From a virus (lineage: Duplodnaviria; Heunggongvirae; Uroviricota; Caudoviricetes): 64,000 nucleotides of DNA. The stretch is taken from IMG/VR virus record IMGVR_UViG_2687453623_000004; one strand, written 5' to 3'. A program made the translations under genes and the position numbers. Numbering within the stretch: the stretch's first letter is position 1; each line of letters begins with the position of its first letter. Below are positions 556 through 20,064 of this stretch, piece by piece. Under the pieces are notes generated by a model. That model was not told where the DNA came from. It did not search any database and saw nothing but the letters and a program-made list of their open reading frames with translations.

Positions 556-769
556 GTTTTCTCTCTTCAGGCGGGTGATTTATCATTGCCAGCGAATGAG
601 GGGCTGTATTACCTTTATAAAGGCTTTACAGCCTCTGTTTTATAACCGCCTCCGGTTCACCGCATTGCTTTCCCTGTCCTTCTCCCCTGATGTTTTCTAA
701 AGCAGATTAAAATCGCCGGGCCTGCATTTCTCACAAACTGTCTCCGACAACATAACGCGGGACAGCAAA

Positions 770-1885
770 ATGTCAGCCATTCACATTTTTAAAGCCGGTA
801 CTCATACCGATATGCACGGCAAAAAACTGCCGTTCACGCCAGACGATCTTGCCGCCTGCGTGAAAGCCTATGACCCGTCCGTCCATGAAGCACCACTCGT
901 GATTGGTCATCCCAGAACGGAAGACCCGGCGTGGGGCTGGGTGAAAGCCCTGTCGCTCAGCGGCGTCGATCTGATGGCAGAGCCTGCCCAGCTGGACCCG
1001 CAGTTTGCTGAGATGGTCACCGACGGACGATTCAAAAAAGTGTCCGCCTCTTTCTACCTCCCGGATTCACCGTCCAATCCGAAGCCCGGCGTGCTCTACC
1101 TTCGCCATGTGGGCTTTCTCGGGGCACAGCCACCTTCCGTCAAGGGGCTGAAACAGGTGTCCTTCAGTGAGCAGGAAGAAGGTGTGGTGGAGTTCGCCGA
1201 CTGGCAGGCCATCACGAATGCCTCCCTGTGGGGAAAGCTGCGCGATTTTCTGATCGCCCGCTTCAGTCTGGACGAGGCAGAAAAAGTCCTGCCGGAATGG
1301 CAGCTCAACAGTCTGCGCGAAGAGGCGTACCGCGACACACTGTCGCAGGATGCAGCAGGTGCACAATTCAGTGAGACAGGCCCGGGGCCGTCTTCCGCAA
1401 GTAACGAGGAATCATCGATGACAAAAGAAGAGATTGAAGCCCTTCAGGAGGAGAACCGCCGCCTGAAGCAGCAGGCTGCTGATCGCGATGCGCGTGATGC
1501 ACAGGTCAGACAGGAGCAACTGCATAAGGACAATGTGGCCTTTGCAGAAAAACTGGTCGCAGAGGGCCGTCTGGCTCCCCGCGCCTCCTCCGTGGTGGTT
1601 GCCCTGCTGGATGCCGTCGCCGGTGGCGACAAGCCGGTGGAGTTTGCTGAGGGGGAAAGCCGCACACCGCTGGCCACCGCCTTTCGTTCATTGCTCTCCG
1701 ACGGGGAGCCGGTGATGAATTTCGCCGAACAGGCCACAAAAGAGCGTGTCGGCGACACGGTGAAGGTGGATGTGGCAGAGTTTGCGGAAGCCGATCCTGA
1801 GCGTCTGGCCCTGCATCAGAAAGCAGTGGCCCTGTCCAAAAAAGAAGGCATCAGCTATGAGGCTGCTGTCGCACGCTGCCTGTAA
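770..1885 (+). CDS. Mu-like prophage protease/scaffold protein (gpI-like)
   Basis: 371-aa ORF; N-terminal region typical of the Mu I protein family with a coiled-coil-like, charged C-terminal half (scaffold); immediately upstream of the major head gene. Confidence 0.65.
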   Translation: MSAIHIFKAGTHTDMHGKKLPFTPDDLAACVKAYDPSVHEAPLVIGHPRTEDPAWGWVKALSLSGVDLMAEPAQLDPQFAEMVTDGRFKKVSASFYLPDSPSNPKPGVLYLRHVGFLGAQPPSVKGLKQVSFSEQEEGVVEFADWQAITNASLWGKLRDFLIARFSLDEAEKVLPEWQLNSLREEAYRDTLSQDAAGAQFSETGPGPSSASNEESSMTKEEIEALQEENRRLKQQAADRDARDAQVRQEQLHKDNVAFAEKLVAEGRLAPRASSVVVALLDAVAGGDKPVEFAEGESRTPLATAFRSLLSDGEPVMNFAEQATKERVGDTVKVDVAEFAEADPERLALHQKAVALSKKEGISYEAAVARCL

Positions 1886-1899
1886 TTTAAGGAGAGAGC

Positions 1900-2853
1900 A
1901 TGTCTGATTACTTAAAAGGTAAACGTGTCGTTGATCCGGTACTGACCAGTATCGCCCGTGGCTATAAAAATGCCGCATTCATCGGCGAACGTATTTTCCC
2001 CGTCGTGCTGACGGACAAGGAAGGCGTGCGTGTACCGACCTTCGGGAAAACCGCCTTTGTGGAATATGACACCGAGCGTGCCGTCGGGGCGGACAGCAAT
2101 GTTCTGGTCCGTGAAAAAACAGGCACGCTGGACCTGGTGCTGGGTGAACACGATCTGGCTGCGCCGGTGGACTATCGCGAGCAGGCGGAGTCCATGTTTA
2201 ACGAAGAGAGCAAGGCCATCCGTCGCGCCACGAATGGCGTGAACCTGCGCCGTGAACTTATCGCTGCCCGTCTGGCTCAGGATGAAAAGGTCTACCGTAC
2301 CGGGCACGTCAAAAAACTGACAGCCAGTGATCGCTGGGCCGGTGGTAAGGGGGACCCCATCGGGGTGATTGAAGCCGGTATGGAAGCGGTCCGTACGGCC
2401 ACGGGGCTGCGTCCTAACCTGATGACCATGGGGGCCGGCGTGATGGCGCTGCTGAAGTTCCACCCGGCGATTCAGGCCGCCATCGGAGCCAACGAACGCA
2501 AGCGCATCACCACAGAAATCCTGCAGGACCTCTTTCAGATCGAAGAGATCGTCATCGGTGCCCCAGTCTCCCTGCCGTCCATGAAAGCGGCAATGGATAA
2601 GAACAGCGTGCCGGCGGATATCTGGGGAGACAATCTGATGCTGCACTATGTCGGCAAACCGCAGCCGGGGGCGGACAGCGCGGACGAGAACGAGCCGTCC
2701 TTCGGCTACACCCTGCGTCGTAAGGGGATGCCTGTTGCCGACAAATACGACGGAGCCGGTGGCAAGGTGAAGTACTGCCGTTATACCGATATCTACAAAG
2801 TCGCCGTGGTTGGTGGCGATGCCGGGTATCTCATTACCGGTATCAGTAAATAA
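1900..2853 (+). CDS. major head subunit (Mu gpT-like)
   Basis: 317-aa ORF with RBS aaggagaga upstream; size and position match the Mu T capsid protein. Confidence 0.7.
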   Translation: MSDYLKGKRVVDPVLTSIARGYKNAAFIGERIFPVVLTDKEGVRVPTFGKTAFVEYDTERAVGADSNVLVREKTGTLDLVLGEHDLAAPVDYREQAESMFNEESKAIRRATNGVNLRRELIAARLAQDEKVYRTGHVKKLTASDRWAGGKGDPIGVIEAGMEAVRTATGLRPNLMTMGAGVMALLKFHPAIQAAIGANERKRITTEILQDLFQIEEIVIGAPVSLPSMKAAMDKNSVPADIWGDNLMLHYVGKPQPGADSADENEPSFGYTLRRKGMPVADKYDGAGGKVKYCRYTDIYKVAVVGGDAGYLITGISK

Positions 2854-2862
2854 GGAGGCGTT

Positions 2863-3201
2863 ATGGGAACCACTCAGCAGGTCATTCTGATCACAACCGT
2901 AACGGCAGGGGCAGCACTGGCACAGCAGCGTTTTGTCGGGGCAGATAATACCCCCTGTAAAGCCGGTGCCGCAGCGCTCGGGGTTGCCGAAGTGGATGCT
3001 GTTACCGGCGACAGCACGCCGGTGAGCGTTCTGGGCATTATTGCTGTCGAGGCCGGGGCCGCTGTCAGCCGTGGTGTGGCTGTTCAGTCAGATGCTCAGG
3101 CCAGAGCCGTGCCGCAGTCCGGCGACGGTAAATCCTGTGGTATTGCACTTGATGAAGCCGGGGGTGAAGGCGACGTCATTCGTATCCTGCGCGGGGTGTG
3201 A
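2863..3201 (+). CDS. hypothetical head-associated protein (Ala/Gly/Val-rich)
   Basis: 112-aa ORF with strong RBS (taaggagg) 6 nt upstream; tightly packed between capsid gene and gp36-like gene. Confidence 0.45.
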   Translation: MGTTQQVILITTVTAGAALAQQRFVGADNTPCKAGAAALGVAEVDAVTGDSTPVSVLGIIAVEAGAAVSRGVAVQSDAQARAVPQSGDGKSCGIALDEAGGEGDVIRILRGV

Positions 3202-3202
3202 C

Positions 3203-3649
3203 ATGTACTGCACCCTGGAGGATTTGCTTGCGCAGGTGCCGGAGCGGACGCTTATCGAGCTCACCAGTGAAGAGATGGACTTCGACTCACCTGCAACAGT
3301 GAATACCCGTGTGGTGGACAGCTGTATCCGCTATGCCGACGAGCTGATTGATGCCCATCTGCGCGGACGCTATATCCTGCCACTGGCAGAGATACCGACT
3401 GTTCTGCGGGACATTGCCATCACGCTGGTCCGTTACCGGCTCTACGCCCGCCGCCCGGAAGGTGACCTCCCGGATACGGTGAAGGATGACCACAAAGAAG
3501 CGCTGCGGCAACTCAGGGAGTTACGTGATAACAGGCTCACGCTGGGGCTGCCGTCCACTCAGAAAGATGTGCCTGAGCCTGGCGAGTTTCGTGTACGCAG
3601 TCGCCCGGCCACTTTCGGCGGTCGTGACGGTTTACTGGAGAAATACTGA
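3203..3649 (+). CDS. Mu gp36-like protein (DUF1320-type)
   Basis: In-frame ATG at 3203 two bases after the previous stop (the listed 3041 start overlaps the upstream gene); 148 aa; position and size match Mu gp36 (J). Confidence 0.5.
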   Translation: MYCTLEDLLAQVPERTLIELTSEEMDFDSPATVNTRVVDSCIRYADELIDAHLRGRYILPLAEIPTVLRDIAITLVRYRLYARRPEGDLPDTVKDDHKEALRQLRELRDNRLTLGLPSTQKDVPEPGEFRVRSRPATFGGRDGLLEKY

Positions 3650-4113
3650 TGAACGTTCTGCCCGTCCTTGATGCGGTACTGGCCCGGTTACGCGAGAAGC
3701 TGCCGCAACTGCAGGTGGAGTACTTCCCGGAGAAACCGGCTGAATATCGCCTGAACCATCCGGTTGGCGCGTTGCTGTTGAGCTATGCCGGTTCGCGCTT
3801 TGACAGGCCGGATGATACCGGTGCGGTGATCCAGTCTCAGACTATCCAGCTCTGCGTCACGGTGGTCTTCCGCCAGCTCAACGGTAAAAAAGGGGCGATT
3901 AATGTCCTGGATGCTGTCCGCCGCATTCTCGGTGGCCACACCCCGCCCGGCTGCCGCCGCCGTATCTGGCTGACCCGCGAGGTGTTTATCGGTGAAGTCA
4001 GGGGGCTGTGGCAGTACGCCCTCGACTTCGCGACTGAAAGCGTCTTTATCGAAGACAGCGATTTACCGTCCGGCCCGCTGTTAACCGAAGTGAACTATGA
4101 GGAAAGCGAGTGA
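3649..4113 (+). CDS. Mu gp37-like protein (DUF1834-type)
   Basis: 154-aa ORF whose ATG overlaps the preceding stop (ATGA coupling); size and position match Mu gp37 (K). Confidence 0.5.
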   Translation: MNVLPVLDAVLARLREKLPQLQVEYFPEKPAEYRLNHPVGALLLSYAGSRFDRPDDTGAVIQSQTIQLCVTVVFRQLNGKKGAINVLDAVRRILGGHTPPGCRRRIWLTREVFIGEVRGLWQYALDFATESVFIEDSDLPSGPLLTEVNYEESE

Positions 4114-4364
4114 TGAAAGAATACCGCTATTCCGGCCCGGCCAGCGGCGTCACGCTGTCGGACGGAACCGAAATCCTGCTCTGGCCGGGGAAGACGGTTT
4201 CCCTGCCGGAGGAGCATGACTACGTGAAGGTACTGGTGGCGCTGAAACATCTGACGCCGGTACCTGAAGAGACTAAACCCGCCGGCACACCGGCTGTGCA
4301 GTCACCAAAGCGCAGAAGCAGCAGTGACAGCGAAGTGAAAACGGAGGACACCCATGGCAGCTAA
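4110..4364 (+). CDS. small hypothetical phage protein (Mu gp38 position)
   Basis: 84-aa ORF, start overlaps the upstream stop and its end overlaps the sheath gene start; typical operon packing. Confidence 0.35.
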   Translation: MMKEYRYSGPASGVTLSDGTEILLWPGKTVSLPEEHDYVKVLVALKHLTPVPEETKPAGTPAVQSPKRRSSSDSEVKTEDTHGS

Positions 4365-5781
4365 CTATCTGCATGGTCCCGAAACCATTGAGGTGGAAAA
4401 CGGTGCCCGCCCGGTTAAAACGGTGAAATCTGCCGTTATTGGCCTGATTGGTACCGCCCCGATGGGGGATGTCAATACGCTGGTACAGTGCCTGTCTGAG
4501 AAAGACGCAGCGGCATTTGGCAGCCAGTTCACCGGCTTTACCATTCCGCAGGCGCTGGATGCGATTTATGACCATGGTGCAGGCACCGTTCTGGTCATTA
4601 ACGTCCTCGACCCGGCGAAACATAAAACGGCGATCGAGGATGAGGTGGTTACCTTTGACAAATCGACAGGGCAGGCCAGACTGGCGCATCCGGTTGTCGC
4701 TAATGTGGTGGTGAAAAACAGTGAAGGCAGCACCACCCACACGGCGAACACGGACTACCGTGTTGATGCGCAGGCGGGTGTGCTCACGAACCTGGGCAAG
4801 GCTATTGAGGCCGGTGGCAGCGTGAAGGTGAGCTATGAGTACGCGGACCCGTCGAAGGTGACTGCGGCGGACATCATCGGCGGGGTGAACAGCGCCGGAA
4901 ACCGAACCGGCATGAAGCTGCTTAACGACAGCTTCAACCTGTACGGCTATTTCGCCAAAATTCTGATTGCGCCGGTGTTCTGCACCCAGAAGAGTGTCGC
5001 AGTTGAGCTTATCGCCATGGCAGAGAAGCTGGGCGCGGTAACCTACATTGATGCGCCTGTCGGTACCACCTTTGCACAGGCTCTGGCAGGTCGTGGCCCG
5101 GAAGGCACCATCAACTTCAATACCAGCTCCGACCGCGTCCGTCTGTGCTATCCGCATGTGAAGGTATATGACCCGGTGACAAACACAGAGCGTCTGGAGC
5201 CGCTCAGCCAGCGTGCAGCAGGTCTGCGTGCCAGAGTCGATCTGGACAAGGGCTACTGGTGGTCATCCTCCAATCAGGAGATTCTGGGGATCACCGGCGT
5301 GGAGCGCCAGCTGTCCGCGATGATTGATGACCCGCAGAGTGAGGTGAACCTGCTTAACGAACAGGGGATCACCACGGTATTCAGCAGTTACGGCAGCGGC
5401 CTTCGTCTGTGGGGTAACCGGACGGCAGCATGGCCAACGGTCACCCATATGCGTAACTTTGAGAACGTTCGCCGCACCGGTGATGTGATCAACGAGTCCA
5501 TTCGTTATTTCAGCCAGCAGTACATCGACATGCCGATTACTCAGGCGCTGATTGATGCACTGACGGAGTCGGTCAACGCCTACGGTCGCAAAATGACTGG
5601 TGATGGTGCGGTACTGGGCTTCCGTTGCTGGTTTGATCCGGCCCGCAATCCGGAGACGGAGCTGGCCGCCGGGCACCTGTTGCTGAGCTACAAATATACG
5701 CCACCACCGCCGCTGGAGCGACTGACGTTTGAGACTGAGATCACCTCGGAATACCTGTTAACCCTGAAAGGGGGCAACTGA
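4354..5781 (+). CDS. contractile tail sheath protein (Mu gpL-like)
   Basis: 475-aa ORF; size, position upstream of the tube gene and sequence character match myovirus sheath proteins. Confidence 0.8.
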   Translation: MAANYLHGPETIEVENGARPVKTVKSAVIGLIGTAPMGDVNTLVQCLSEKDAAAFGSQFTGFTIPQALDAIYDHGAGTVLVINVLDPAKHKTAIEDEVVTFDKSTGQARLAHPVVANVVVKNSEGSTTHTANTDYRVDAQAGVLTNLGKAIEAGGSVKVSYEYADPSKVTAADIIGGVNSAGNRTGMKLLNDSFNLYGYFAKILIAPVFCTQKSVAVELIAMAEKLGAVTYIDAPVGTTFAQALAGRGPEGTINFNTSSDRVRLCYPHVKVYDPVTNTERLEPLSQRAAGLRARVDLDKGYWWSSSNQEILGITGVERQLSAMIDDPQSEVNLLNEQGITTVFSSYGSGLRLWGNRTAAWPTVTHMRNFENVRRTGDVINESIRYFSQQYIDMPITQALIDALTESVNAYGRKMTGDGAVLGFRCWFDPARNPETELAAGHLLLSYKYTPPPPLERLTFETEITSEYLLTLKGGN

Positions 5782-6302
5782 TGTCAAAGATTGAGATAAA
5801 CCGCATCACGAATGCCAACATCTATCTGGATGGTACTAACCTGCTGGGACGGGCTGAGGAAGTTAAACTCCCCGATGTCTCCATGATTATGCAGGAACAC
5901 AAGGCGCTGGGGATGGTGGGTAAGGTGGAACTCCCGGCTGGTTTTGACAAACTGGAAGGCGAAATCAAATGGAACAGCTTTTACCGCGATGCGATGCTGT
6001 CTGCCGCGAACCCGTACAGGTCGCTGGCACTGCAGTGTCGTTCCAGCGTCCAGCGCTACAGCTCGCAGGGGCTGATTGACGAAATCCCGCTGGTCACCTT
6101 CCTGACGATTATGTTCAAGAAGAACCCGCTGGGGACGTTCAAACAGCACGAGAACGCCGAGTTCTCCAGTAGCTTCACCTGCACGTATATCAGACAGGTA
6201 CTGGATGGTGAAGAGCTGCTGCAACTGGACTATCTGGCCAACATCTTCCGGGTCGGCGGTGTTGATCAACTGACTGACTACCGTATCAATATCGGGGGCT
6301 GA
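5781..6302 (+). CDS. tail tube protein (Mu gpM-like)
   Basis: 173-aa ORF whose start overlaps the sheath stop; sheath-tube gene pair. Confidence 0.65.
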   Translation: MSKIEINRITNANIYLDGTNLLGRAEEVKLPDVSMIMQEHKALGMVGKVELPAGFDKLEGEIKWNSFYRDAMLSAANPYRSLALQCRSSVQRYSSQGLIDEIPLVTFLTIMFKKNPLGTFKQHENAEFSSSFTCTYIRQVLDGEELLQLDYLANIFRVGGVDQLTDYRINIGG

Positions 6303-6304
6303 CG

Positions 6305-6586
6305 GTGAGTGTTGAACTGACGGATAAAGGAGGACGATGTGCGGCACTGGGCATGTCAAATGGTACGTGGTTTACCCTCCTTGATATTCCGGGGGTGGAA
6401 ACCCTTTTTAATACCCGTAAAACCAATGACCCGATTGACTGCACACGTTCAAAGGCCCGCAAACTGGCGGATTTGATTGAAGCATGGGAGCCTCCCGACC
6501 ACTGGTTCTCCGGCATCGGCAAATCTGAGGGAAAGACGCTTCTCATCGCTTTCCTGCGTAACTGCAAGGGGTTTCGCACTTGCTGA
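6305..6586 (+). CDS. hypothetical protein (possibly shorter, from ATG 6353)
   Basis: 93-aa ORF beginning with GTG at 6305 (G-run 6 nt upstream) or an internal ATG at 6353; no recognisable family. Confidence 0.25.
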   Translation: MSVELTDKGGRCAALGMSNGTWFTLLDIPGVETLFNTRKTNDPIDCTRSKARKLADLIEAWEPPDHWFSGIGKSEGKTLLIAFLRNCKGFRTC

Positions 6587-6683
6587 CATCACAGGGGCTC
6601 CGGCCCCTTCTTCTTAATCTCCTTTAATATCCGTCACGCGCTTCTCCCGACATACTGCCCTGAACTTACACAGGAGCACAATC

Positions 6684-7019
6684 ATGTCACAGACCCCATC
6701 CGATACTTTTAAATTGTCTTATCCCTTCACCACTGCTGCAGGCACCAGAATTGAGCTGGTTGAACTGAAACGCCTGACGGTAAAAGACCTGAAGCAGGTG
6801 CGCAAAATCAGCAAAAACCCGGCAGACTGGGACGAACCGCTGATTGCCCGCAGTACTGGTCTTCTCCCGGAGGATCTCGACAATATGGATCTGGCTGATT
6901 ACCTGCAGTTACAGAAACGATTTCAGCTCATCACGGGGATGGGTGAGAGCAACCAGGGCGCTGACGCAGGCGCAGGGGCTGCTGGCGAGATGGTTCCGGT
7001 TTCAGCCGGGGGAGATTGA
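6684..7019 (+). CDS. tail assembly chaperone (Mu gp41 / P2 gpE analogue)
   Basis: 111-aa acidic ORF immediately upstream of the tape measure gene; RBS caggagca upstream; overlapped at its 3' end by a second frame (see frameshift product). Confidence 0.6.
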   Translation: MSQTPSDTFKLSYPFTTAAGTRIELVELKRLTVKDLKQVRKISKNPADWDEPLIARSTGLLPEDLDNMDLADYLQLQKRFQLITGMGESNQGADAGAGAAGEMVPVSAGGD

Positions 7020-7101
7020 TGCCCTCGATACTGACGATCTGGAGATGTGGCTGGAGCAGGCTGAAGAGCAAATCAAAAGCGAGTACGGCGACAAATCATA
7101 G
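6684..7101 (+). other. putative programmed-frameshift product of the tail assembly chaperone (shift to the +1 frame, equivalent to -2)
   Basis: Second frame 6844..7101 has no plausible start of its own, overlaps the last third of the chaperone gene and adds ~28 aa (…RFQPGEIDALDTDDLEMWLEQAEEQIKSEYGDKS); a G5 run at 7008-7012 lies in the overlap. Confidence 0.4.
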
Positions 7102-7176
7102 TACAGACAGCCGCCAGTAGCGGCTGTTCTGCGTTATCCCCTCACGTCTTTTCACCTTCCCCGGAGGTTAACCACT

Positions 7177-10128
7177 ATGTCGGGACAGTTTTCAGTCGGC
7201 GTTGTTATCGGCGGGATGATTGGCAGCACATTCCGTTCTGCAATGAGCGGTACCCGCCGTGCGCTTGATTCCCTGAGCGATACCTCACGCCGCCTGCAGG
7301 AACGTCAGAACGCTTTAACCCGTGCAACAGAACGTTATGGTCAACTGGGTTCTTCCCGGATGCAGCATCTCAACAGCGAGCTGCTGCGGGTAAGCCGCAC
7401 CATGGAGCAAATTGAGCGCCAGCAGCGCCGTCTGTCAGCGGCATCCGCTACCAGTGATGCGCTGAAAGCTAACCGCATGGCGCTGTATGGTCAGGGGATT
7501 GAAGCGTATGGCATGGCACAGACTGTTTATCATACGGTTTCCCCTGCCGTTCAGCAGTCCATGTCTTTTCAGGACAAAATGATTGATATGTCGATCACCG
7601 CAAAATATGACAATAAAACGCGGGATGCACTTGCCGGACAGATAAAAGGCTGGGCGCTTAAATACAATCAGTATCAGGATGAGCTGCAGGAGGCGATGGG
7701 TTCACTCATCAGCGACAATATTGATAATGTGTCAGATATCGGTTTTCTGATGCCGGATATTGCCCGCGCGGCAACGGCAACACGCACGTCTGCTCAGGAC
7801 TGGGCAAAAGTGGCCGCAGTCTGGCAAAACTCCCTGAAAGGCGCGGCCAGAGATTTTGGTGCCGTTCAGAATATTATGGCTTATGCCGGTGACCAGGGGT
7901 CATTTGAAATCCCGGATCAGGTCAAGTGGATGCAGTCCCTGGCCCCAATGATGGCGGGTATTGCCAGTGGAAAAGAGGCTGTTGCTGAAATCGGGGCCAG
8001 TCTCCAGATAGCAAAAATCGGTGCAGGTTCCACCGACGAAGCAGCCAATAATTTTAAAAACTTTCTTACCAAAATTTTTGCCCGCGATACTCAGAAACAG
8101 TTTGCTGATCTGGGTATTGATTTGCAGGGATCTATTGCGAGTTATAAAGCTGCGGGGATCTCTCCGATTGAAGGGATGTTGAGTGTTATAGAACGTTACC
8201 TCAATGCCAAAAGCCCCGAAGCGCTGGCCGGCTTCAAATCAGCCATGAAAATAAAGAATGATACGGCAAGAGATGAGGCACTTCAGGCTCTGGCGAAAAA
8301 CTTTGGTCTGGGCGATATGTTCGCGGATATGCAGGTCATGGCATTTATCCGCCCGATGCTGGCCAACATGGACAGATATCGAGAGATCCGTGCCGGTGCT
8401 CTCAGGGCTGCGGATAACGATTTGCTTGCCAGTGCTTATGATCAGCGGCTGAAATCTCCCCTTGAAGCCACTAAAACACTTATGGTCAGCAGTCGCGATC
8501 TGGCAATTACGCTGGGCGATCAATTAGCTCCATCTTTTATTTCTCTGACTCAGGACTTGCTCCCACTCATTCAGGGGACAAAACACTGGGTGGCGACTCA
8601 CCCGCAATTTGTCAGTGGGGCTTTTAAGCTCATCAGTGCGCTCCTTGCGATTAAGATAGCGACTGTTGGTCTCAAACTGGGGCTGAATCTCCTTATTTCC
8701 CCCTTTGTGAACGTCTGGAAAACTGCTGTTTTACTCCGGACCAACTGGCATCGACTGACTACCGCACTCGGAGAAGGTGGCAAATTACGCTGGCTTGTCA
8801 CTGGATTCAGCCGACTGACCAGCGGAGGACTGAAACTCAGCAAAGTTCTGGCGGGCAGCCTCGTTCGCGGTTTTATGAGCGCTGCACGTGCCGTTCTCTG
8901 GATTGGGCGAGCGCTGATGATGAATCCCATCGGTCTCGTTATCACCGCTGTCGCGGCAGCAGCTTACCTTATCTACCGCAACTGGGGGGCAGTCAGTGGC
9001 TGGTTTAAACAGCGCTGGGCTGACATTCAGGAAGCCTTTAACGGCGGTATCGCGGGAACTGGTAAGCTGCTGATTAACTGGTCGCCGGCAGGCCTGCTCT
9101 ATAAAGCCTTTGCGGCTGCGCTGAAATATTTCGGCGTTACTCTGCCGGCAAAGTTCACCGACTTCGGTGGCCATCTTATCGACGGTTTGATTAACGGTAT
9201 CAAAAACAAATGGGGGTCGCTCAAATCCAGTGTAACCGGAATGGGTGACAGCATCAGTAGCTGGTTTAAACAATGCTGGGCTGACATTCAGGAAGCCTTT
9301 AACGGCGGTATCGCGGGAACTGGTAAGCTGCTGATTAACTGGTCGCCGGCAGGTCTGCTCTATAAAGCCTTTGCAGCTGCGCTGAAATATCTTGGTGTTG
9401 ATCTGCCGGCAAAGTTTACCGACTTCGGTGGCCATCTTGTCGATGGTCTGATTAACGGTATCAAAAACAAATGGGAGTCGCTCAAATCCAGTGTAACCGG
9501 AATGGGCGACAGCATCAGTGGCTGGTTCAGCGAAAAGCTGGGCATTCATTCGCCGAGCCGCGTGTTTATGGGCTTTGGTGACAATATCGCGCAGGGGGCC
9601 GCCATTGGCCTGCAGCGGACCACTCCGCTTGCAGCTCTGGCCGGGCAGCGAATGGCCAGTGAACTGCTCCCCAGAATGCCCGTGAGCATTCAGGGGCCAG
9701 AAATACGGGATAACACTTCAGGTGTTCGCTTCAGTATGCCGTTGCCCGATATCAATGGGTTTATGTCGTCTGCTAAAAATGCGATCGGAGCCGTAATCAA
9801 TAGTTTGTCTTCCATGCCCGCTATTCCGCTCTCCACCCGGGCATCGATTTTACCAGGGCAACGTCTGGCAAATGAGATGACACCGGATGTTCCCCGTATC
9901 CCCTCGCCTGAAATCCTGGCTGCCGGATATTCAGGCCGTGGTGCAGCTGCAACCGGCGGTGGAACGTCTGGTGGTATCCAGGTCAGCTTTAATCCTCAGT
10001 TTTTCCTCAATGGCAGGGAAACCACAGCGCCTGCAGGACTGACTGGTGCCCTGAATATGAGTCTGCATGAGCTGGAAAAAATGCTGGAGCGTCTGCTGGC
10101 TCAGAAACAACGTAAGGAGTACCGCTGA
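7177..10128 (+). CDS. tail tape measure protein
   Basis: 983-aa ORF after the chaperone pair; RBS ccggaggt upstream; helical N-terminal region, hydrophobic central segments, internal tandem duplication. Confidence 0.85.
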   Translation: MSGQFSVGVVIGGMIGSTFRSAMSGTRRALDSLSDTSRRLQERQNALTRATERYGQLGSSRMQHLNSELLRVSRTMEQIERQQRRLSAASATSDALKANRMALYGQGIEAYGMAQTVYHTVSPAVQQSMSFQDKMIDMSITAKYDNKTRDALAGQIKGWALKYNQYQDELQEAMGSLISDNIDNVSDIGFLMPDIARAATATRTSAQDWAKVAAVWQNSLKGAARDFGAVQNIMAYAGDQGSFEIPDQVKWMQSLAPMMAGIASGKEAVAEIGASLQIAKIGAGSTDEAANNFKNFLTKIFARDTQKQFADLGIDLQGSIASYKAAGISPIEGMLSVIERYLNAKSPEALAGFKSAMKIKNDTARDEALQALAKNFGLGDMFADMQVMAFIRPMLANMDRYREIRAGALRAADNDLLASAYDQRLKSPLEATKTLMVSSRDLAITLGDQLAPSFISLTQDLLPLIQGTKHWVATHPQFVSGAFKLISALLAIKIATVGLKLGLNLLISPFVNVWKTAVLLRTNWHRLTTALGEGGKLRWLVTGFSRLTSGGLKLSKVLAGSLVRGFMSAARAVLWIGRALMMNPIGLVITAVAAAAYLIYRNWGAVSGWFKQRWADIQEAFNGGIAGTGKLLINWSPAGLLYKAFAAALKYFGVTLPAKFTDFGGHLIDGLINGIKNKWGSLKSSVTGMGDSISSWFKQCWADIQEAFNGGIAGTGKLLINWSPAGLLYKAFAAALKYLGVDLPAKFTDFGGHLVDGLINGIKNKWESLKSSVTGMGDSISGWFSEKLGIHSPSRVFMGFGDNIAQGAAIGLQRTTPLAALAGQRMASELLPRMPVSIQGPEIRDNTSGVRFSMPLPDINGFMSSAKNAIGAVINSLSSMPAIPLSTRASILPGQRLANEMTPDVPRIPSPEILAAGYSGRGAAATGGGTSGGIQVSFNPQFFLNGRETTAPAGLTGALNMSLHELEKMLERLLAQKQRKEYR
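8988..9530. repeat. intragenic tandem duplication (two ~261-bp units plus a partial third) inside the tape measure gene
   Basis: Unit beginning tggtttaaacagcgctgggctgacattcagg recurs 261 bp later with few substitutions; the protein shows the ~87-aa block WFKQ…GMGDSIS twice in frame. Confidence 0.85.
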
Positions 10129-11012
10129 TGTTTGCCGTACTGGGTGATATTGAGTTTGAGCTGATTACCTACTGGGACGGCTTCGAGGCCACGTTCGGCG
10201 TCGATTATGCGGAGCATGCCCGCATCGGGGGTAAGCCTGGTCTGCAGTTCGTCGGCGACAGGCTGGACGAAATCCAGATAACTCTGGTTTTCCATCAGCA
10301 TTATTGTGTACCCGATGTGGAGCTGGCGAGACTGCGAACAGCCATGAAAGCCCATCAGGCACTGGCGCTGGTCTTCGGCAACGGTGACTATCGCGGCTGG
10401 TTCGTGATCACCGATGTGACTGCAACCAGCGAGCAGACTGACAGTACCGGCAACGTGCTGGCTGTCAGTGCCACCGTGTCTCTCCGGGAATACACCGGTG
10501 ACCCGAAAAATCCTCTGCAACCACCGGCAATACGCACGAAGCTCCCGGGTGTCGGGGCGGTCTCCGGTGCCATACCTTCACCTTCAGGGGTGGCGCAGTT
10601 CATCCGCAACGGCGTCAACTATGCGAAACAGGCGCAGTCTGTACTCCAGACCACTATCAGCGCCGTTCGGGTGACACAGAAAATGAAGGATAACCCCGTT
10701 GTCGCACTGACCCGTGTGCCGGGGCTGATGAGCGGACTGGGTAATATCTCCGGGGCTCTGGGGAAAAGTGTTCCGGCGTTTAACGCACTCTCTGAATCCA
10801 TGCCCGATGCCATCAGTCTGGCCAGAACAGCCAGCGAAGCAGCCACGTATGTACAGCAGGCACAGTCTGCGCTGAGTGGTGTGGACAAAAGAAATATTGC
10901 AGGTGCTCTGGATACCGTTTCCGGGCAGCTTAACGCCGTCGGCACAGCATTCAACCGCATGTCTCCGGGATTAAGTGCAATGGCCGCCAGAATACTGACG
11001 AGGAGTGTGTGA
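10128..11012 (+). CDS. tail protein with P2 gpU-like N-terminal region (Mu gp43 position)
   Basis: 294-aa ORF with start overlapping the tape measure stop; N-terminus MFAVLGDIEFE… resembles the P2 gpU family seen at 29387..29866. Confidence 0.5.
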   Translation: MFAVLGDIEFELITYWDGFEATFGVDYAEHARIGGKPGLQFVGDRLDEIQITLVFHQHYCVPDVELARLRTAMKAHQALALVFGNGDYRGWFVITDVTATSEQTDSTGNVLAVSATVSLREYTGDPKNPLQPPAIRTKLPGVGAVSGAIPSPSGVAQFIRNGVNYAKQAQSVLQTTISAVRVTQKMKDNPVVALTRVPGLMSGLGNISGALGKSVPAFNALSESMPDAISLARTASEAATYVQQAQSALSGVDKRNIAGALDTVSGQLNAVGTAFNRMSPGLSAMAARILTRSV

Positions 11013-11224
11013 TGTTTCTTGAACATGTTACCCGTGACGGAGAGCGCTGGGATTCGCTGGCATGGCAGTACTACGGTGACCCGCTGGGCTATCCCCGGAT
11101 TATTGCCGCCAATCCGCACGTGGCCATCACGCCGGTGCTGCCCTCCGGGCTGTTGTTACTGATCCCGGTGATTGAGGCTGAAGAAGCCCGTACAGAAGAG
11201 GATATTGCCCCATGGCTGAGATAA
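11009..11224 (+). CDS. tail protein X-like (LysM-like)
   Basis: 71-aa ORF; pattern …DSLAWQYYGDP…AANPHV… parallels P2 gpX (…DAICVRYYGRT…AANPGL…) found at 47519..47722. Confidence 0.5.
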   Translation: MMFLEHVTRDGERWDSLAWQYYGDPLGYPRIIAANPHVAITPVLPSGLLLLIPVIEAEEARTEEDIAPWLR

Positions 11225-12366
11225 ACAGCACTGCGCAAGTCACATCAGCGTTAACCGGCGTCAGCGATGTGCTGACACCGGTGTTCACTCTGTGGTATCT
11301 GCAGAAAAACATCACCTCTGATATCGCGCCTTATGTCACCCGTGTGACCTGGAGCGATAACATCAAAAATGAGTCCGATACCATTGAGGTGGAGCTGGAC
11401 GACACCGATGGCCGCTGGCTGGATAAATGGTATCCGGGCAAGGGTGACACGCTGACGCTGAAAATGGGCTATCAGGGCGAGAAGCTGCTGTCCTGCGGTA
11501 CGTTCTCTATAGACGAGATCGAAGTGAGTTCGCCCGCTTCCGTTGTTTCTATCCGTGGGGTGGCCACCTCGGTTAACAGTGCCCTGCGGACTAAAACCAG
11601 TCGTGGTTTTGAGAACACCACGCTGGCAGCTGTTGCGGGGCGGATTGCCAGAAAGCACCGGCTGAAACTGGTGGGCAGCATTGAGTCCATCAGAATCGAC
11701 CGGGTGACCCAGTATGCTGAAACCGACGTGGGTTTTCTGCGCCGGCTGGCCAGCGAGTATGGTTATGCAGTGAAAGTGGTCAGTGACCAGCTGATTTTTT
11801 CTCATCTGGCCACACTGCGCAGTCAGGAGCCGGTCAGGCAGTTAAAACCGCAGGATGTGGCCCGCTTTTCCCTGCGTGACACCATCAACCGGGTCTATAA
11901 ATCTGCAAAGGTAAAACACCAGAAAAGCAGCAGTAAAAAACTGATCGTCTACGAAGCTGATGGTGGTACCCGTGAAAGCGACAAAAAGCTCAAAGGTGGT
12001 AAGGTTACCAGCGCTGACTCACTTAAAGTTAACAGCCGCGTCAGCGACCCGGACAGTGCCCGGATTAAAGCGGATTCAGCACTGGCCAGACATAACGAAT
12101 ACCAGCAGAACGGCTCCCTGACGCTGACGGGAACACCTCAACTGACAGCAGGCAACAAAATTGAACTGGTGAGTTTTGGGCAGTTATCCGGGCCATGGCT
12201 CATAACCACTGCCCGCCATGCGTTTGACCGTAACAGCGGCTACACCACAGAGCTGGAAGTGGCACGGGGGCCAGTCACAAGAGGGAAAAAACAAAAAACT
12301 CAGAAACTCACGGTTTATCACCCGGATGGCAGTACATCGACGGTGATTAAGGAGAAGAAAAAATGA
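11212..12366 (+). CDS. baseplate hub / late-control gpD-like tail protein (Mu gp44-like)
   Basis: 384-aa ORF with architecture similar to P2 gpD including a lysine-rich C-terminal region. Confidence 0.6.
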   Translation: MAEINSTAQVTSALTGVSDVLTPVFTLWYLQKNITSDIAPYVTRVTWSDNIKNESDTIEVELDDTDGRWLDKWYPGKGDTLTLKMGYQGEKLLSCGTFSIDEIEVSSPASVVSIRGVATSVNSALRTKTSRGFENTTLAAVAGRIARKHRLKLVGSIESIRIDRVTQYAETDVGFLRRLASEYGYAVKVVSDQLIFSHLATLRSQEPVRQLKPQDVARFSLRDTINRVYKSAKVKHQKSSSKKLIVYEADGGTRESDKKLKGGKVTSADSLKVNSRVSDPDSARIKADSALARHNEYQQNGSLTLTGTPQLTAGNKIELVSFGQLSGPWLITTARHAFDRNSGYTTELEVARGPVTRGKKQKTQKLTVYHPDGSTSTVIKEKKK

Positions 12367-12959
12367 CTGGTGTCACTCGTCAGGTCGGTACGGTCAGTGC
12401 CGTTGATGCCGACAGGGTTCAGGCCCGCGTTCGTCTGCCTGAATGCGATAACCTGCGCACAAACTGGCTTAACGTGCTGCAGCGCAATACCCAGGATAAC
12501 AAAGATTACTGGCTCCCTGACGTGGGGGAGCAGGTTGAGGTGCTGCTCGATGCCAACGGCGAGGATGGTGTTATTCTGGGCGCGGTGTATTCAGACGTCG
12601 ATAAACCACCGTTCAGTGACAAAAATATCCGGGGAACCCGGTTTGCTGATGGTGCAGAGTACAGCTACAACCGGAAGACGCACACTCTGATCATCCGGGG
12701 CGGCATTGAGCATATTGTCATTGAGTGTGGTGCTGATGTGGTATTGAAAACACAGAAAGCCACGATTGACGCACCGGAAACCGAACTTACCGGAGATCTG
12801 CGTGTCAGGGGTAAGCTGATTTACGAAGGAGGCATGGCGGGTTCTGGTGGTGAAGGTGTTACCGCGACCATCCATGGCAATATCGAGATTAAAGGGAATG
12901 TCCATGCCACGGGCAGTATGTTGTCTGATGGCGAAAACTCCAGCCACCACTCCCACTGA
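12363..12959 (+). CDS. baseplate spike protein (P2 gpV-like / Mu gp45-like)
   Basis: 198-aa ORF; compares with P2 V at 44162..44797 in size and spike-like C-terminal region; histidine-rich C-terminus. Confidence 0.6.
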   Translation: MTGVTRQVGTVSAVDADRVQARVRLPECDNLRTNWLNVLQRNTQDNKDYWLPDVGEQVEVLLDANGEDGVILGAVYSDVDKPPFSDKNIRGTRFADGAEYSYNRKTHTLIIRGGIEHIVIECGADVVLKTQKATIDAPETELTGDLRVRGKLIYEGGMAGSGGEGVTATIHGNIEIKGNVHATGSMLSDGENSSHHSH

Positions 12960-13013
12960 GCTTTTTAAACGCCTTTAATATCAGCGTTCCCGCACGGGGG
13001 CAATACTGCCCCC

Positions 13014-13361
13014 ATGAAAACAACCTCAGTATTCTGGCAACCAGCCCTGCAGGCTCCCGGCGAAATTGTCCGGGGGCTGGATGATATCCGGCAGGCGATT
13101 CAAATTATCCTGCGGACTCCCCGCGGCAGCGACCCGCATCGCCCGGAGTTCGGCAGCAATCTGCATCTTTATATCGACTGGCCTGTAGACCGGGCCATTC
13201 CGCATGTGGTGCGCGAATCCGTCGATGCCATCCGGCGCTGGGAGCCCCGCTGCCAGCTTATGTCAGTTAAACCCGCCGTCGACGGCGAACATCTTACGCT
13301 CCGGGTGAGCTGGAAAGGCTCAGACGGACAGACCCGGACTCAGGAGCTGCTATGGCGCTGA
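13014..13361 (+). CDS. baseplate wedge protein (gpW / gp25-like)
   Basis: 115-aa ORF, same length as P2 gpW at 43818..44165, conserved position before the J-like gene. Confidence 0.6.
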   Translation: MKTTSVFWQPALQAPGEIVRGLDDIRQAIQIILRTPRGSDPHRPEFGSNLHLYIDWPVDRAIPHVVRESVDAIRRWEPRCQLMSVKPAVDGEHLTLRVSWKGSDGQTRTQELLWR

Positions 13362-14455
13362 CAGAACCCGATTTTATTGAACGCGATGCCGACAAAATCA
13401 CGGCAGAAATGATTGCGAAGTATGAAGCGGATACCGGCAAAACGCTGTACCCGGCACAGGCAGAACGTCTGCTGATTGATCTGTGGGCCTATCGCGAAAT
13501 GCTGGTCAGGGTTGCGGTACAGGAGGCAGCAAAGCAGAATCTGGTCGCCTTTGCCCGTGAGCCGATGATTGATTACCTCGGTGAACTGGTCGGTGTATAC
13601 CGTCTTGCCGCGCAGCCTGCCACCACCACGCTCCAGTTCTCCGTAGATGAGGCACTGGCCATTGATGTGCTGATCCCGGCAGGCACCCGCGTCAGCGCTT
13701 CCGACAGCGTTATTTTTGCCACCGATACAGATGTGGTACTGAAGGCCGGATTGCTGCTGGTCAATGTCACGGCCACCTGTACCGAACCCGGTACCGCTGG
13801 TAACGGCTGGCAACCTGCGCAGGTCAGTCAGTTACTCGATGAGATTGATAACGTTAACCTGCTGGTGAGCAATCTGATGGCCAGTTCCGGCGGTTCAGAA
13901 CAGGAAGACGATGACAGGCTCCGGGAGCGTATCAGGCTGGCCCCGGAGTCATTCACCAATGCCGGAAGCCGTGGCGCATACCGCTTTCATGCCATGCAGG
14001 CCCATCCCAACATTGTCGATGTTGCTGTGCTTTCCCCGGTTCCCGGGACCGTAGATCTGTATCCGCTGCTCAGTACCGGTCTGCCGGACGGCGGTGTTCT
14101 CACGCTGGTAGAGAGTTTCTGCTCTGATGAGAAAGTCAGGCCACTCACTGATACAGTGCGGGCTAAAACACCAGTGAAGGTGGATTACACCATTGAAGCC
14201 AGGATTACGATCTATCGTGATCAGGATGCCAGGTCTGTAAAAGATGCCGCTAACAGCGCCATACAGAACTGGGTGGCATCACGTGCCGCCACGCTGGGGC
14301 GCGATATTGTCCCCAGCCAGATTATCAGTGCATTGTCCGTTTCCGGGGTGTACCAGGTTGAACTGGTGACACCGGCACTGCGGGTGGTGGCAGAAAACGA
14401 ATGGGCAAACTGTACGGCAATCACTCTTAACATGACTGGAGTGTCTGATGACTGA
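13352..14455 (+). CDS. baseplate J-like protein (Mu gp47-like)
   Basis: 367-aa ORF overlapping the W-like stop; corresponds to P2 gpJ (42905..43813) in gene order. Confidence 0.65.
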   Translation: MALTEPDFIERDADKITAEMIAKYEADTGKTLYPAQAERLLIDLWAYREMLVRVAVQEAAKQNLVAFAREPMIDYLGELVGVYRLAAQPATTTLQFSVDEALAIDVLIPAGTRVSASDSVIFATDTDVVLKAGLLLVNVTATCTEPGTAGNGWQPAQVSQLLDEIDNVNLLVSNLMASSGGSEQEDDDRLRERIRLAPESFTNAGSRGAYRFHAMQAHPNIVDVAVLSPVPGTVDLYPLLSTGLPDGGVLTLVESFCSDEKVRPLTDTVRAKTPVKVDYTIEARITIYRDQDARSVKDAANSAIQNWVASRAATLGRDIVPSQIISALSVSGVYQVELVTPALRVVAENEWANCTAITLNMTGVSDD

Positions 14456-15026
14456 GCCATTACAACTCCCGCCACCGCTTGAGGGTGATATCAGTCTCAG
14501 GACGCTGGGAAGACTGGCAGGACGGCTGGATAACATCGACCTGAGCGTACTGATGGTCTTTCTCGTCGATATCGTCGACAGTTCCGCGCTGCCATGGCTG
14601 GGCGAGCAGTTCTCACTGTCTGGCGATGGCTGGGAGCTGGCGGAATCGGACGATGTTCGCCGCATGCTTATAAAAGCAGCCATCGAACTGCACCGGTATA
14701 AAGGGACGCCGTGGTCAATCCGGGAAGTTATCCGCCGTTTTGGCTTTGGTGAAGTGGATCTGATTGAAGGCACAGGTCGTCTCAGTTACGACGGCAATCG
14801 CAGCTATAACGGACTGTTTGTTCATGGAGATGCAGCCGCCTGGGCAGTTTATCGCGTTATTCTGAAACAGCCCATTACTAACGATCAGGCCGCGATGCTG
14901 CGTCAGACGCTGGCTGCATTTGCACCGGCCCGCTGCCATCTGGCCAGCCTGGAGTATCAGTCTGTGGCCATTCGCTATAACAATACCGCCATCCATGATG
15001 GCAGTTATAACCACGGGAGCAGTTGA
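14448..15026 (+). CDS. tail protein I-like (Mu gp48-like)
   Basis: 192-aa ORF overlapping J-like stop and fibre start; position equals P2 gpI. Confidence 0.55.
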   Translation: MTEPLQLPPPLEGDISLRTLGRLAGRLDNIDLSVLMVFLVDIVDSSALPWLGEQFSLSGDGWELAESDDVRRMLIKAAIELHRYKGTPWSIREVIRRFGFGEVDLIEGTGRLSYDGNRSYNGLFVHGDAAAWAVYRVILKQPITNDQAAMLRQTLAAFAPARCHLASLEYQSVAIRYNNTAIHDGSYNHGSS

Positions 15027-16276
15027 TTATGGGAAACCTGAATGAAACAGAAAAGTGGGAAGAAAATATCTATCAACTGGAGACATCAGATCCGGTTCTG
15101 GGTGGTGCAGACGGGATATCAAATCGAGCCCCCCGGCAACTGGCAAACAGGACGAAATGGCTGAAGAAGAAAACGGAGGAAGCCGCACAGTCACTGGCTG
15201 AACACGTACGTTCCCGTAACCACCCGGACGCGACACTGACAGCTAAGGGGTTCACCCAACTGAGCAGTGCCACCAACAGCACCTCTGAAACGCTGGCCGC
15301 CACACCAAAAGCGGTCAAGGCTGCATACGACCTGGCAGCCGGCAAGGCGCCTGCCAGCCACACTCACCCGTGGAGTCAGATAACGGGAGTGCCTGCGGCT
15401 TCACTGACGGCAAAAGGCACCGTACAACTGAGCAGCGCCACGGACAGTCAATCAGAAACTGAGGCTGCCACGCCGAAGGCGGTCAAGGCTGCATACGACC
15501 TTGCAGCCGGCAAGGCGCCCGTCAGCCACACTCACCCGTGGAGTCAGATAACGGGAGTGCCTGCTGCCTCGCTGACGGCAAAAGGCACCGTACAATTGAG
15601 CAGTGCCATCAACAGCACGTCTGAAATACTGGCCGCCACACCGAAAGCGGTCAAGGCTGCATACGATCTGGCAAACGGAAAACAACCGGCAGATGCCACG
15701 CTCACTGCTCTGGCAGGACTTGCCACTGCAGCAGATCGGTTGCCTTATTTTACCGGAGCAGACCGCGCAGAGCTGGCAACCCTTACAGCTATTGGTCGCG
15801 CTATTATCGCTAAGGGCAGTATAAAAGATGTCCTCAATTACCTTGGTTTGGGGGAAGGCTCGGCGCTGCCCGTTGGTGTACCTGTTCCGTGGCCCACTGC
15901 CACACCGCCAGCAGGCTGGTTAAAGTGCGACGGGCGCGCCTTTACAAAAGAACAATATCCTGTTCTGGCCAGAGTCTACCCGACCCTCCGTCTTCCCGAT
16001 TTACGCGGTGAGTTTATCCGTGGATGGGACGACGGGCGAAAAGTGGATACAGGGCGCGATCTGCTTTCACGGCAGGATGGTACAAGTTTTTCTCATTACG
16101 CAGGTAATTTTGACATTGGGTCTGGTCATTCAATCAATAACTATGACCAAATCGTTGACAACCAACCTGGATTCTCCCGTTTTTCATTTGCAGGTCCTTC
16201 GCGAGGCGATGGGGTTAATTATGTGACCATTCGTCCCCGTAACATTGCGTTTAATTACATCGTAAGGGCGGCATAG
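15023..16276 (+). CDS. tail fibre protein (constant region fused to variable cassette 1)
   Basis: 417-aa ORF; N-terminal collar motif ([23 protein letters not shown]…PKAVKAAYD) shared with P2 H at 39747..42371; three tandem ~56-aa repeats; C-terminus ends [11 protein letters not shown]. Confidence 0.8.
   Translation: MIMGNLNETEKWEENIYQLETSDPVLGGADGISNRAPRQLANRTKWLKKKTEEAAQSLAEHVRSRNHPDATLTAKGFTQLSSATNSTSETLAATPKAVKAAYDLAAGKAPASHTHPWSQITGVPAASLTAKGTVQLSSATDSQSETEAATPKAVKAAYDLAAGKAPVSHTHPWSQITGVPAASLTAKGTVQLSSAINSTSEILAATPKAVKAAYDLANGKQPADATLTALAGLATAADRLPYFTGADRAELATLTAIGRAIIAKGSIKDVLNYLGLGEGSALPVGVPVPWPTATPPAGWLKCDGRAFTKEQYPVLARVYPTLRLPDLRGEFIRGWDDGRKVDTGRDLLSRQDGTSFSHYAGNFDIGSGHSINNYDQIVDNQPGFSRFSFAGPSRGDGVNYVTIRPRNIAFNYIVRAA
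15236..15700. repeat. three tandem ~168-bp coding repeats inside the tail fibre gene
   Basis: Protein block LTAKG(F/T)(T/V)QLSSA…[12 protein letters not shown](A/N)GK… occurs three times consecutively; DNA copies start near 15236, 15404 and 15572. Confidence 0.8.
15831..15856. other. putative invertase crossover site 1 (gix/hix-like), at the constant/variable junction of the fibre gene
   Basis: Sequence …caattaccTTGGTTTgggggaagg…; homology with the inverted copy at 17874-17899 begins exactly here; central ACCTTGGTTT resembles the AAACCAAGGT core of hix-type sites as I recall them. Confidence 0.4.
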
Positions 16277-18529: not shown

Positions 18530-18610
18530 TTTTCAAATAATGAAACGCCGCGTGGATGCCATTTATCGCACAAGATAGAGTGCATTTATCGCGCGGCGCA
18601 TCATTCTTCA
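18530..18610. mobile_element. Mu-like right terminus (putative transposase-binding repeats ending …TTCA)
   Basis: Two copies of CATTTATCGC(A/G)C within 40 bp, then …gcgcggcgcatcattcttca; recalled Mu right end contains CGATAAATGCG and ends …GCGCCGCTTCA; homology to phage genes stops here. Confidence 0.45.
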
Positions 18611-18780
18611 TGTGAATCATCCGTTGATTAATTATATATAAACATTATGTATCAACAAGTTACATTGATAATTAACGCTACCATTAATAAAAATACCCCA
18701 CAAGGTCCGAAAAAAAACGCCGGCAATGTGCCGACGTCTTTGAAAAGAAAGGATTGTCTATGTTATCGCCCGTTATTCAT

Positions 18781-20064
18781 TCAGCCGGGTTGACTTATCC
18801 GCGCCAATTGCTCGAAATAGTCTGGAAAAGTTTTAGCGGTACATTTTGGATCAAGAATCGTCACAGGCGTATCTGATAATGCGACCAGCGAGAAACACAT
18901 CGCCATCCGGTGATCATTATAAGTGGCGATCTCAGCAAATTTCAGTTTTTCCGGTGGCGTAATGCGAATGAAATCATGCCCCTCTTCGACTTCCGCACCG
19001 ACTTTACGCAGTTCTGTTGCCATCGCAAACAGGCGATCGGTCTCTTTAACACGCCAGTTATAGATATTGCGCAGCGTGGTGGTGCCTTTTGCAAATAACG
19101 CCGCGGTGGCAATGGTCATCGCCGCATCGGGAATATGGTTCATATCCATATCAATGGCGTTCAGTTCACCACGCGTGCAGGAAATATAATCATCGCCCCA
19201 GCAAATGGTCGCGCCCATTTTTTCCAGAACATCAGCAAAGCGAATATCACCCTGCATACTGTTGCGTCCAATGCCGGTCACTTTTACAGTGCCGCCTCTG
19301 ATTGCTGCTGCTGCCAGGAAATAAGAAGCCGAAGATGCATCGCCTTCAACCAAATAAGTGCCCGGAGACTGGTAAGACTGCCCCCCTTTTACGACAAATT
19401 GTTGATAGTGCTGATTTTCAATTTCAACACCAAACGTCTTCATCAGATTGAGGGTGATATCGATATAAGGTTTAGAAACCAGATCGCCTTTAATACGAAT
19501 CACCGTATCTTCCGGCGCAAGAGGCGCAGTCATTAACAGTGCGGTGAGGAACTGGCTGGAAACGGAGCCATCAACATCAACGTTGCCGCCAGTAAAGCCG
19601 CCCTGTAAACGCAATGGCGGATAATTTTCTTGTTCCAGGTAAGTGATCTTCGCCCCGCCCTGGCGCAGCGCATCCACCAGATGACCAATCGGGCGTTCTT
19701 TCATTCGCGGTTCACCGCTCAGTACAATATCATTGCTACCCAGGCAAAGTGCTGCCGCCAGCGGACGCATTGCCGTTCCGGCGTTACCGAGGAACAACTC
19801 CCGGGCACTTTCTGCGTGTAATGGACCACCGTTACCGATAATTTCGCAACGCGTACGATCGGCTGAAAGCGTATAGCTTACCCCTAACGCTGTTAATGCA
19901 TTCAGCATATGGCGCACGTCATCGCTATCCAGCAGATTGGTTAATACTGTTTTGCCGTGTGCTAATGCCGCCAGCAATAAAGCGCGGTTAGAAACGCTCT
20001 TGGAACCGGGCAGATTAATAGTGCCATCGACACGAGCGATGGGTTGTAACGTTAGGGATTCCAT
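18781..20064 (-). CDS. aroA: 3-phosphoshikimate 1-carboxyvinyltransferase (EPSP synthase)
   Basis: 427-aa [38 protein letters not shown]… matching E. coli AroA along its length with a few substitutions relative to my recollection of K-12. Confidence 0.95.

Follow-up and report, generated by a model that had tools for sequence, protein, structure and literature searches.

What kind of boundary closes the phage block beside aroA in this DNA, and by what route did the phage come to lie there? The window analyzed is one strand of 64,000 nucleotides. Its source is E. coli ST131 by sequence match. Bases 1-20911 are identical to strain JJ1886, in which positions 1000000-1020910 (NC_022648.1; L001 1-20911) are the exact reverse complement of window 1-20911. 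JJ1886 L001 coordinates (L) convert to window coordinates (w) as w = 20912 - L. Many E. coli ST131 genomes match the junction region at 100% identity. The phage block in JJ1886 is a 39.6-kb prophage between aroA and ycaL; its late part occupies the start of the window and the remainder lies upstream of it. The layout around the junction is as follows.

1 to 18603, plus strand: late part of the prophage, assigned as a BcepMu-like transposable phage (head, tail, baseplate, tail-fibre and invertase genes), from BcepMu late-protein matches and the JJ1886 annotation.
15840 to 17889, no strand: invertible tail-fibre segment with 229-nt inverted repeats at 15840-16068 and 17661-17889.
17953 to 18525, plus strand: serine DNA invertase of the Gin/Cin type and final phage gene on this side (Pfam Resolvase at 8e-51, plus HTH_7).
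18604 to 18611, minus strand: first 8 nt of host ycaL (ATGAAGAA), placed by alignment to the K-12 empty site and split from the gene body by the 39.6-kb prophage.
18612 to 18780, minus strand: native aroA-ycaL intergenic region, collinear with K-12 along its entire length.
About 18710 to 18737, minus strand: aroA terminator, read by eye from the sequence; a consensus terminator scan did not call it, though a hairpin and T-run are visible.
18781 to 20064, minus strand: host aroA, from the ORF and RefSeq annotation, with serC beyond.

Two copies of CATTTATCGC, and no more, are present in the 64-kb window; they occupy 18560-18569 and 18583-18592 and are spaced 23 bp apart. The phage block ends just beyond these copies, as a preliminary description of this DNA had reported. 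Chance predicts 0.29 copies in the window and at least two arose in 4 of 100 shuffles, which makes the copy number by itself mildly unusual. The weight of the repeats comes from comparisons with other phage ends, not from copy number. The two copies mark two 23-bp imperfect direct repeats.

18558 to 18580, minus strand: inner subterminal repeat of 23 bp, an R2-like putative transposase-binding site (core GATAAAT at 18561-18567; direct repeat at 23-bp spacing).
18581 to 18603, minus strand: outer terminal repeat of 23 bp, an R1-like putative site (core GATAAAT at 18584-18590; terminal CA at 18602-18603).

Each repeat has a G(C/A)GATAwwT core and the end finishes in CA. The right terminus of the phage is 18603 (...GCGCATCA), and the same terminus adjoins five different host sequences plus a sixth in CP025887.1. 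The distance from the terminus to the aroA stop codon is 177 bp, and 78 bp of non-coding DNA separate it from the invertase stop (18525). This interval leaves no room for a com/mom gene, in keeping with the earlier remark that a mom-type gene is missing. A 17-nt imperfect inverted repeat with 82% complementarity pairs 18536-18552 with 18592-18608. Its arms are GAAACGCCGCG just 3' of the invertase stop and the terminal CGCGGCGCATCA, the outer arm being partly host DNA; the pairing may be fortuitous or may mark a third transposase site in inverted orientation.

Both junctions were aligned to the unoccupied site in K-12 (...CACATGAAGAATACTAAA..., with ycaL annotated from its ATG). The empty site reads ...GATTCAC ATG AAG AAT ACT AAA..., where ATG is the annotated ycaL start. 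The aroA-side junction passes from ...CACATGAAGAA into TGATGCGCC..., and the far junction from ...TCTAATCA into GAAGAATACTAAA.... The left end of the phage lies outside the window and was located in JJ1886. The comparison shows a precise empty site, with the phage inserted after nucleotide 8 of ycaL, in codons 2-3. Positions 18609-18611 are the reverse complement of the ycaL ATG. The TTCA at 18610 that had been taken as the last bases of the phage is host DNA, contained in the ATGAA of ycaL (18604-18611). The insertion had also been described as intergenic and about 170 bp beyond the aroA stop. The distance is close to the measured one, but the insertion interrupts ycaL in codon 2-3 rather than occupying a spacer.

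The bases next to the terminus are repeated at the other end of the prophage.

18604 to 18609, no strand: 6-bp target-site duplication, read as TTCTTC here and as GAAGAA in the orientation of ycaL, from the empty-site alignment and comparison of the terminus flanks.

The second copy lies outside the window at JJ1886 L001 41907-41912. From the ycaL site alone the duplicated string can be read as 5 to 7 bp, and independent insertions were therefore gathered from other E. coli genomes. Five insertions were compared (n = 5), namely ycaL in the window and JJ1886 and the following four.

MLI121: insertion inside cbtA, 6-bp duplication GTGAAC.
23AR0806: insertion inside a TonB-dependent receptor gene, 6-bp duplication AATAGC.
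MMC-J-0105: insertion inside prpR, 6-bp duplication CCGACG.
Eco889: insertion inside irp2, 6-bp duplication CTCAGG.

The termini are common to all five insertions to the base and read 5'-TGATGCGCC...(phage)...TCTAATCA-3'. The phage therefore has ends of the form 5'-TGAT...ATCA-3', flanked by exact 6-bp direct repeats in 5/5 insertions. A 7-bp duplication (GAAGAAT at ycaL) is ruled out by the four other insertions together with the shared termini, and a 5-bp, Mu-like duplication gives unequal flanks once the shared termini are applied. The duplication is thus 6 bp only, and the 5-bp duplication expected in the preliminary description does not hold. WS3294A, which has an insertion at aes and a different invertase allele, was excluded from the count; its invertase-side end was not found when up to 4 mismatches were allowed. 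A sixth junction is present in CP025887.1 ('Escherichia phage 503046'), where the same terminus is followed by unrelated DNA. Shared termini with 6-bp duplications at unrelated sites indicate transposition, not site-specific integration or a deletion breakpoint.

A breakpoint would mean that 18603 is where a decayed cryptic prophage was cut by deletion or rearrangement, and some features of the element fit that idea. Nothing close to an inverted copy of the terminal 29-mer is present (no second copy across the JJ1886 prophage at up to 3 mismatches), and an IS66-family insertion and pseudogene-flagged tail-fibre fragments are signs of some decay. A breakpoint does not account for a terminus that is identical to the base in independent insertions, for the exact 6-bp ycaL duplication with its precise empty site, or for the same motif architecture in register at the other end. 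The empty-site and multi-insertion comparisons refute this explanation, which is left extremely improbable.

The genes of the prophage identify the transposition system. JJ1886 encodes a 589-aa DDE protein that scores above the cutoff for Pfam rve (gene outside the window at L001 34955-36724). Immediately downstream, in the position of BcepMu gp08, is the gene for an AAA+ protein (Pfam AAA_22 at 3.6e-20). Gam and Mor are encoded, as judged by their Pfam families, and a GemA-like gp16-family protein is annotated beside Mor. The transposase is 68% identical to BcepMu gp09 over 577 aa and 68% identical to its phiE255 counterpart. Identity is 100% with Escherichia phage PhiKM, placed in Bcepmuvirus by the GenBank taxonomy, and 93% with Klebsiella phage KP12 (clone KP12_2) and Escherichia phage Phi06_2974 B. 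A tblastn search with the transposase matches BcepMu, phiE255 and PhiKM. The late genes agree: 19/19 BcepMu late proteins tested (gp31-gp52) are collinear in window 109..15208 at 29-76% aa identity. The maps of JJ1886, MLI121 and 23AR0806 share the BcepMu layout: the regulators, transposase, ATPase, Gam, GemA and Mor form an early operon directed outward to one end, and the genes for lysis, head and tail are read toward the other.

The ST131 copy shows some decay. RefSeq lists several pseudogene fragments in the tail-fibre region (15023-17889), and the tail-fibre ORF in the window is 417 aa versus 555-666 aa in MLI121 and 23AR0806. ISEc23 (IS66-family; tnpA, tnpB and transposase) lies outside the window at JJ1886 L001 27863-30279, directly upstream of the holin gene, and the gene beside it is truncated to 636 nt versus 729 nt in MLI121. 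In the ST131 copy, ISEc23 probably severely impairs expression of the late operon. With this element upstream of the holin gene, the JJ1886 copy may no longer complete a lytic cycle.

The annotation was also searched for an integrase. None is annotated in the 39.6-kb JJ1886 prophage or in the MLI121 and 23AR0806 copies, and the two junctions of each insertion share only the 6 bp of their own target. The element lacks an integrase/att arrangement, as had been proposed at the outset. This result bears on the idea of a P2-like (Peduoviridae) prophage that a tyrosine integrase placed in an att site beside aroA. Such an origin is suggested by the label 'Entero_P88' on the predicted-prophage record PV468777.1, by the P2 names borne by the tail sheath, tube, baseplate and gpD/gpU/gpX-like genes, and by the invertase, which matches numerous P2-like phages at 72-75% identity in nucleotides. 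The absence of an integrase from the element, the presence of a DDE transposase with an AAA+ partner, and the Mu/BcepMu-like heads and early region all contradict it. Site-specific integration is also incompatible with an element that is found at five or more unrelated sites and is flanked at every one by a separate 6-bp duplication. The missing integrase and the multiple sites refute a P2-like origin and reduce its likelihood to practically nil.

The phage ends were compared by reading each one inward from its terminal TG and scoring in-register identity over 46 nt against 20000 shuffles. The sequences and scores are given below.

Window right end, inward: TGATGCGCCGCGCGATAAATGCACTCTATCTTGTGCGATAAATGGC.
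Other end of the same phage, inward: TGATTAGACTTGAGATAAATGACAGGGAATAAGTGAGATATTTATG.
BcepMu right end, inward: TGAAGCGCGGCGCGATATTTCAGCACGTCGACGCGCGATAAATTCG.
BcepMu left end, inward: TGAAGAGAGGTGAGATATTTCCAAGGGAGAACGCGCGATATTTCCG.
Window end versus BcepMu right end: 28/46, with 0/20000 shuffles as high.
Window end versus its own other end: 24/46 (52%), with 0/20000 shuffles as high.
Window end versus BcepMu left end: 23/46, with 5/20000 shuffles as high.
Window end versus Mu right end: 22/46, with 19/20000 shuffles as high, below the BcepMu right-end match.
Window end versus Mu left end: 17/46, with 931/20000 shuffles as high; not significant and at chance level.

TGA at 1-3 and GATAwwT cores at 14-20 and 37-43 are invariant in six ends, BcepMu left and right included. 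The ends of phiE255 and BcepMu have 23-bp imperfect repeats that are proposed to be recognized by the transposase (PMC2920897), and BcepMu-like prophages have TG...CA termini (PMC2628397). The 23-bp spacing and GATAwwT cores seen here match the published phiE255/BcepMu repeats.

The preliminary description called the element a transposable Mu-like phage. Its transposable nature is borne out by the DDE transposase, AAA+ partner, Gam, Mor and Gin-like invertase, but the type is that of BcepMu and not of Mu/D108. A Mu/D108-type (Muvirus) right end would have MuA-binding R1-R3 sites and a 5-bp duplication, and would have lost mom. The invertase, which is 77% identical to Mu Gin, agrees with such an end, as do the Gam and Mor families and the in-register match to the Mu right end, which has CGATAAATG at the R2 position. 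The transposase does not agree. It has no detectable similarity to MuA (Mu gpA; BLASTP E = 0.48), Pfam finds rve only and no Mu-specific transposase domains, and Mu is absent among the 69 phage records matched by the transposase in tblastn. The duplication is 6 bp in all five insertions, the early operon points the opposite way from that of Mu, and the Mu left end matches no better than chance. The transposase and duplication tests refute Muvirus membership, which we regard as very improbable. The early genes run against the Mu direction, which raised the possibility that the prophage had been inverted internally or had lost its left end; no long terminal inverted repeats were found in the whole JJ1886 prophage. 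Both ideas were rejected since the BcepMu map has the same layout, and the other end of the phage has the same motifs in register.

These results identify 18558-18603 as the right terminus, on the late-gene side, of a transposable myovirus of the BcepMu-like kind (Bcepmuvirus), EC958 Phi2, with a probability of roughly 0.93. The element is a BcepMu-type transposable phage, and not of the Mu/D108 or P2 type that some automated labels imply. Earlier work has described the BcepMu-like family well, including the structure of its ends, and current understanding of transposable phages is unchanged by these results. The exact right end of the ST131 prophage Phi2 is now placed at window 18603, and a 6-bp target duplication is documented for E. 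coli members of the BcepMu-like family. PMC5977238 gives no target-duplication length for BcepMu.

A mechanism for the insertion can be proposed by analogy. From the conservation of the ends and the R1/R2 paradigm of Mu, we infer that the 23-bp repeats bind the rve-type DDE transposase of the phage. The transposase would act with the adjacent AAA+ (ExeA/MuB-like) protein, pair the window end with the imperfectly inverted other end, and nick at the terminal CA. The ends would then be joined to target DNA with a 6-bp stagger, the target here being GAAGAA in ycaL codons 2-3, 177 bp downstream of aroA. Replication by transposition, with headful packaging that leaves host DNA on the ends, would be expected of this phage as well; an indirect pointer is CP025887.1, a record named as a phage genome in which unrelated DNA comes straight after the terminus. 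Fixation of the insertion would have followed in an ancestor shared by much of ST131.

The insertion separates ycaL from its expression signals, with the cut after nucleotide 8 in each ST131 genome that has this junction. The ycaL promoter, ribosome-binding site and ATG were left at about 18609-18700, beside the phage end, and the gene body, deprived of them, lies 39.6 kb away. Upstream of the far junction, just 14 codons of the ycaL frame are open, and no in-frame ATG, GTG or TTG occurs between the last upstream stop and the junction. RefSeq gives the ycaL body an ATT start (WP_029364556.1; JJ1886 L001 41866-41915). A sigma-70-like promoter match at 18671-18644 on the minus strand is presumably the orphaned ycaL promoter, now aimed into the phage end and antisense to the invertase gene. 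YcaL is an M48 lipoprotein protease that functions in outer-membrane-protein quality control at the BAM complex. It is possible, although we consider it doubtful, that much of ST131 is a natural ycaL hypomorph or null, or depends for ycaL expression on read-through out of the early (Mor) operon of the phage, with the orphaned promoter running antisense to the invertase. If this is true, read-through expression of ycaL would be coupled to prophage derepression.

The element is already known as prophage Phi2 of E. coli ST131 strain EC958. According to the EC958 genome paper (PMC4134206), Phi2 has a 2067-bp invertible segment with 227-bp inverted repeats that is actively switching in long reads. 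The window segment (~2.05 kb, 229-nt repeats) matches this invertible segment. In the ST131 methylome paper (PMC4659465), the orphan methyltransferase M.EcoMIV (P423_04965 in JJ1886) is assigned to Phi2, which is described as generally present in ST131 and absent from clade A. The accessible portions of the EC958 Phi2 papers contain no mention of a transposable nature, exact termini, a 6-bp duplication or the ycaL interruption. In literature searches, Mu-like/BcepMu prophages of ST131 turned up in passing mentions only, with Bcepmuvirus noted among ST131 prophages (bioRxiv 10.1101/2022.05.07.487787).

Transposable phages had been expected to insert nearly at random, making this position strain-specific. 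The family does occur at many sites, but the aroA/ycaL junction is present in 359/5426 complete E. coli genomes. The position thus marks a lineage rather than a strain, and the junction is a convenient lineage marker. Strains with the junction include JJ1886, JJ1887, ZH193, MNCRE44, O25b:H4 and others, which we take to be known ST131 strains. The Mor-side phage end was found at 704 places in 640/5426 genomes, with varied neighboring genes; the family is common in E. coli, and its insertions often fall within genes. The yersiniabactin synthetase gene irp2 (HMWP2) is interrupted in at least four genomes of the sampled list. The irp2, prpR and cbtA insertions indicate that the phage is a recurrent insertional mutagen that also strikes virulence-associated genes.

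Traces of the family occur in other records. The P1-like phages vB_EcoM-673R5 (ON470615.2, L004 3060-3142) and vB_EcoM-813R1 carry a relic of about 80 nt of a BcepMu-like right end, just after a hin/cin-type invertase, with both GATAAAT cores and the terminal ...GGCACATCA. Canonical P1 homology (cin/lydC region) restarts ~67 bp past the relic. The relic suggests an old insertion of a BcepMu-like phage into P1 followed by deletion. Two phage records are mis-delimited. PV468777.1 takes in host aroA, and its label after the P2-like phage P88 misassigns the family. CP025887.1, deposited as a 'complete genome', continues past the terminus into unrelated DNA (L003 9704 onward).

Among known systems, EC958 Phi2 (Totsika 2011, Forde 2014/2015) is the same element, with the same chromosomal position, invertible segment and methyltransferase. 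The E. coli phages PhiKM and Phi06_2974 B and Klebsiella phage KP12 are relatives. BcepMu and phiE255 have the same type of rve transposase, an adjacent ExeA-like AAA+ protein, Gam, GemA and Mor. BcepMu shares the early/late gene layout with all 19 late genes collinear, the TG...CA termini and the two 23-bp-spaced G(C/A)GATAwwT repeats in register, whereas in nucleotide sequence the two resemble each other in short terminal motifs alone. In place of the invertible tail-fibre segment and Gin-like invertase of the E. coli phage, BcepMu has an acyltransferase (gp53), and the E. coli phage, unlike BcepMu, has an orphan Dam-like methyltransferase (M.EcoMIV).

Mu/D108 is also a transposable myovirus and has Gam and Mor homologues and TG...CA ends in common with the E. 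coli phage. Mu likewise has a Gin-type invertase and an invertible tail-fibre segment, which here form the last functional module before the right end. This module is the part of the E. coli phage that strictly resembles Mu. The two differ in that Mu has com/mom between gin and the right end, makes a 5-bp rather than a 6-bp duplication, and uses a MuA-type transposase without detectable similarity to the rve/Tn552-type enzyme of the E. coli phage. The Mu genes after the repressor all run left to right, whereas the early operon of the E. coli phage is inverted, and its tail genes are P2-like, unlike those of Mu. Tn552 is a small resistance transposon and not a phage, and is likened to this system by annotation: the BcepMu transposase is annotated as 'Tn552/IS1604 rve transposase' and is paired with an ATP-binding partner. 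Tn552 duplications are 6-7 bp, which fits the 6 bp seen here.
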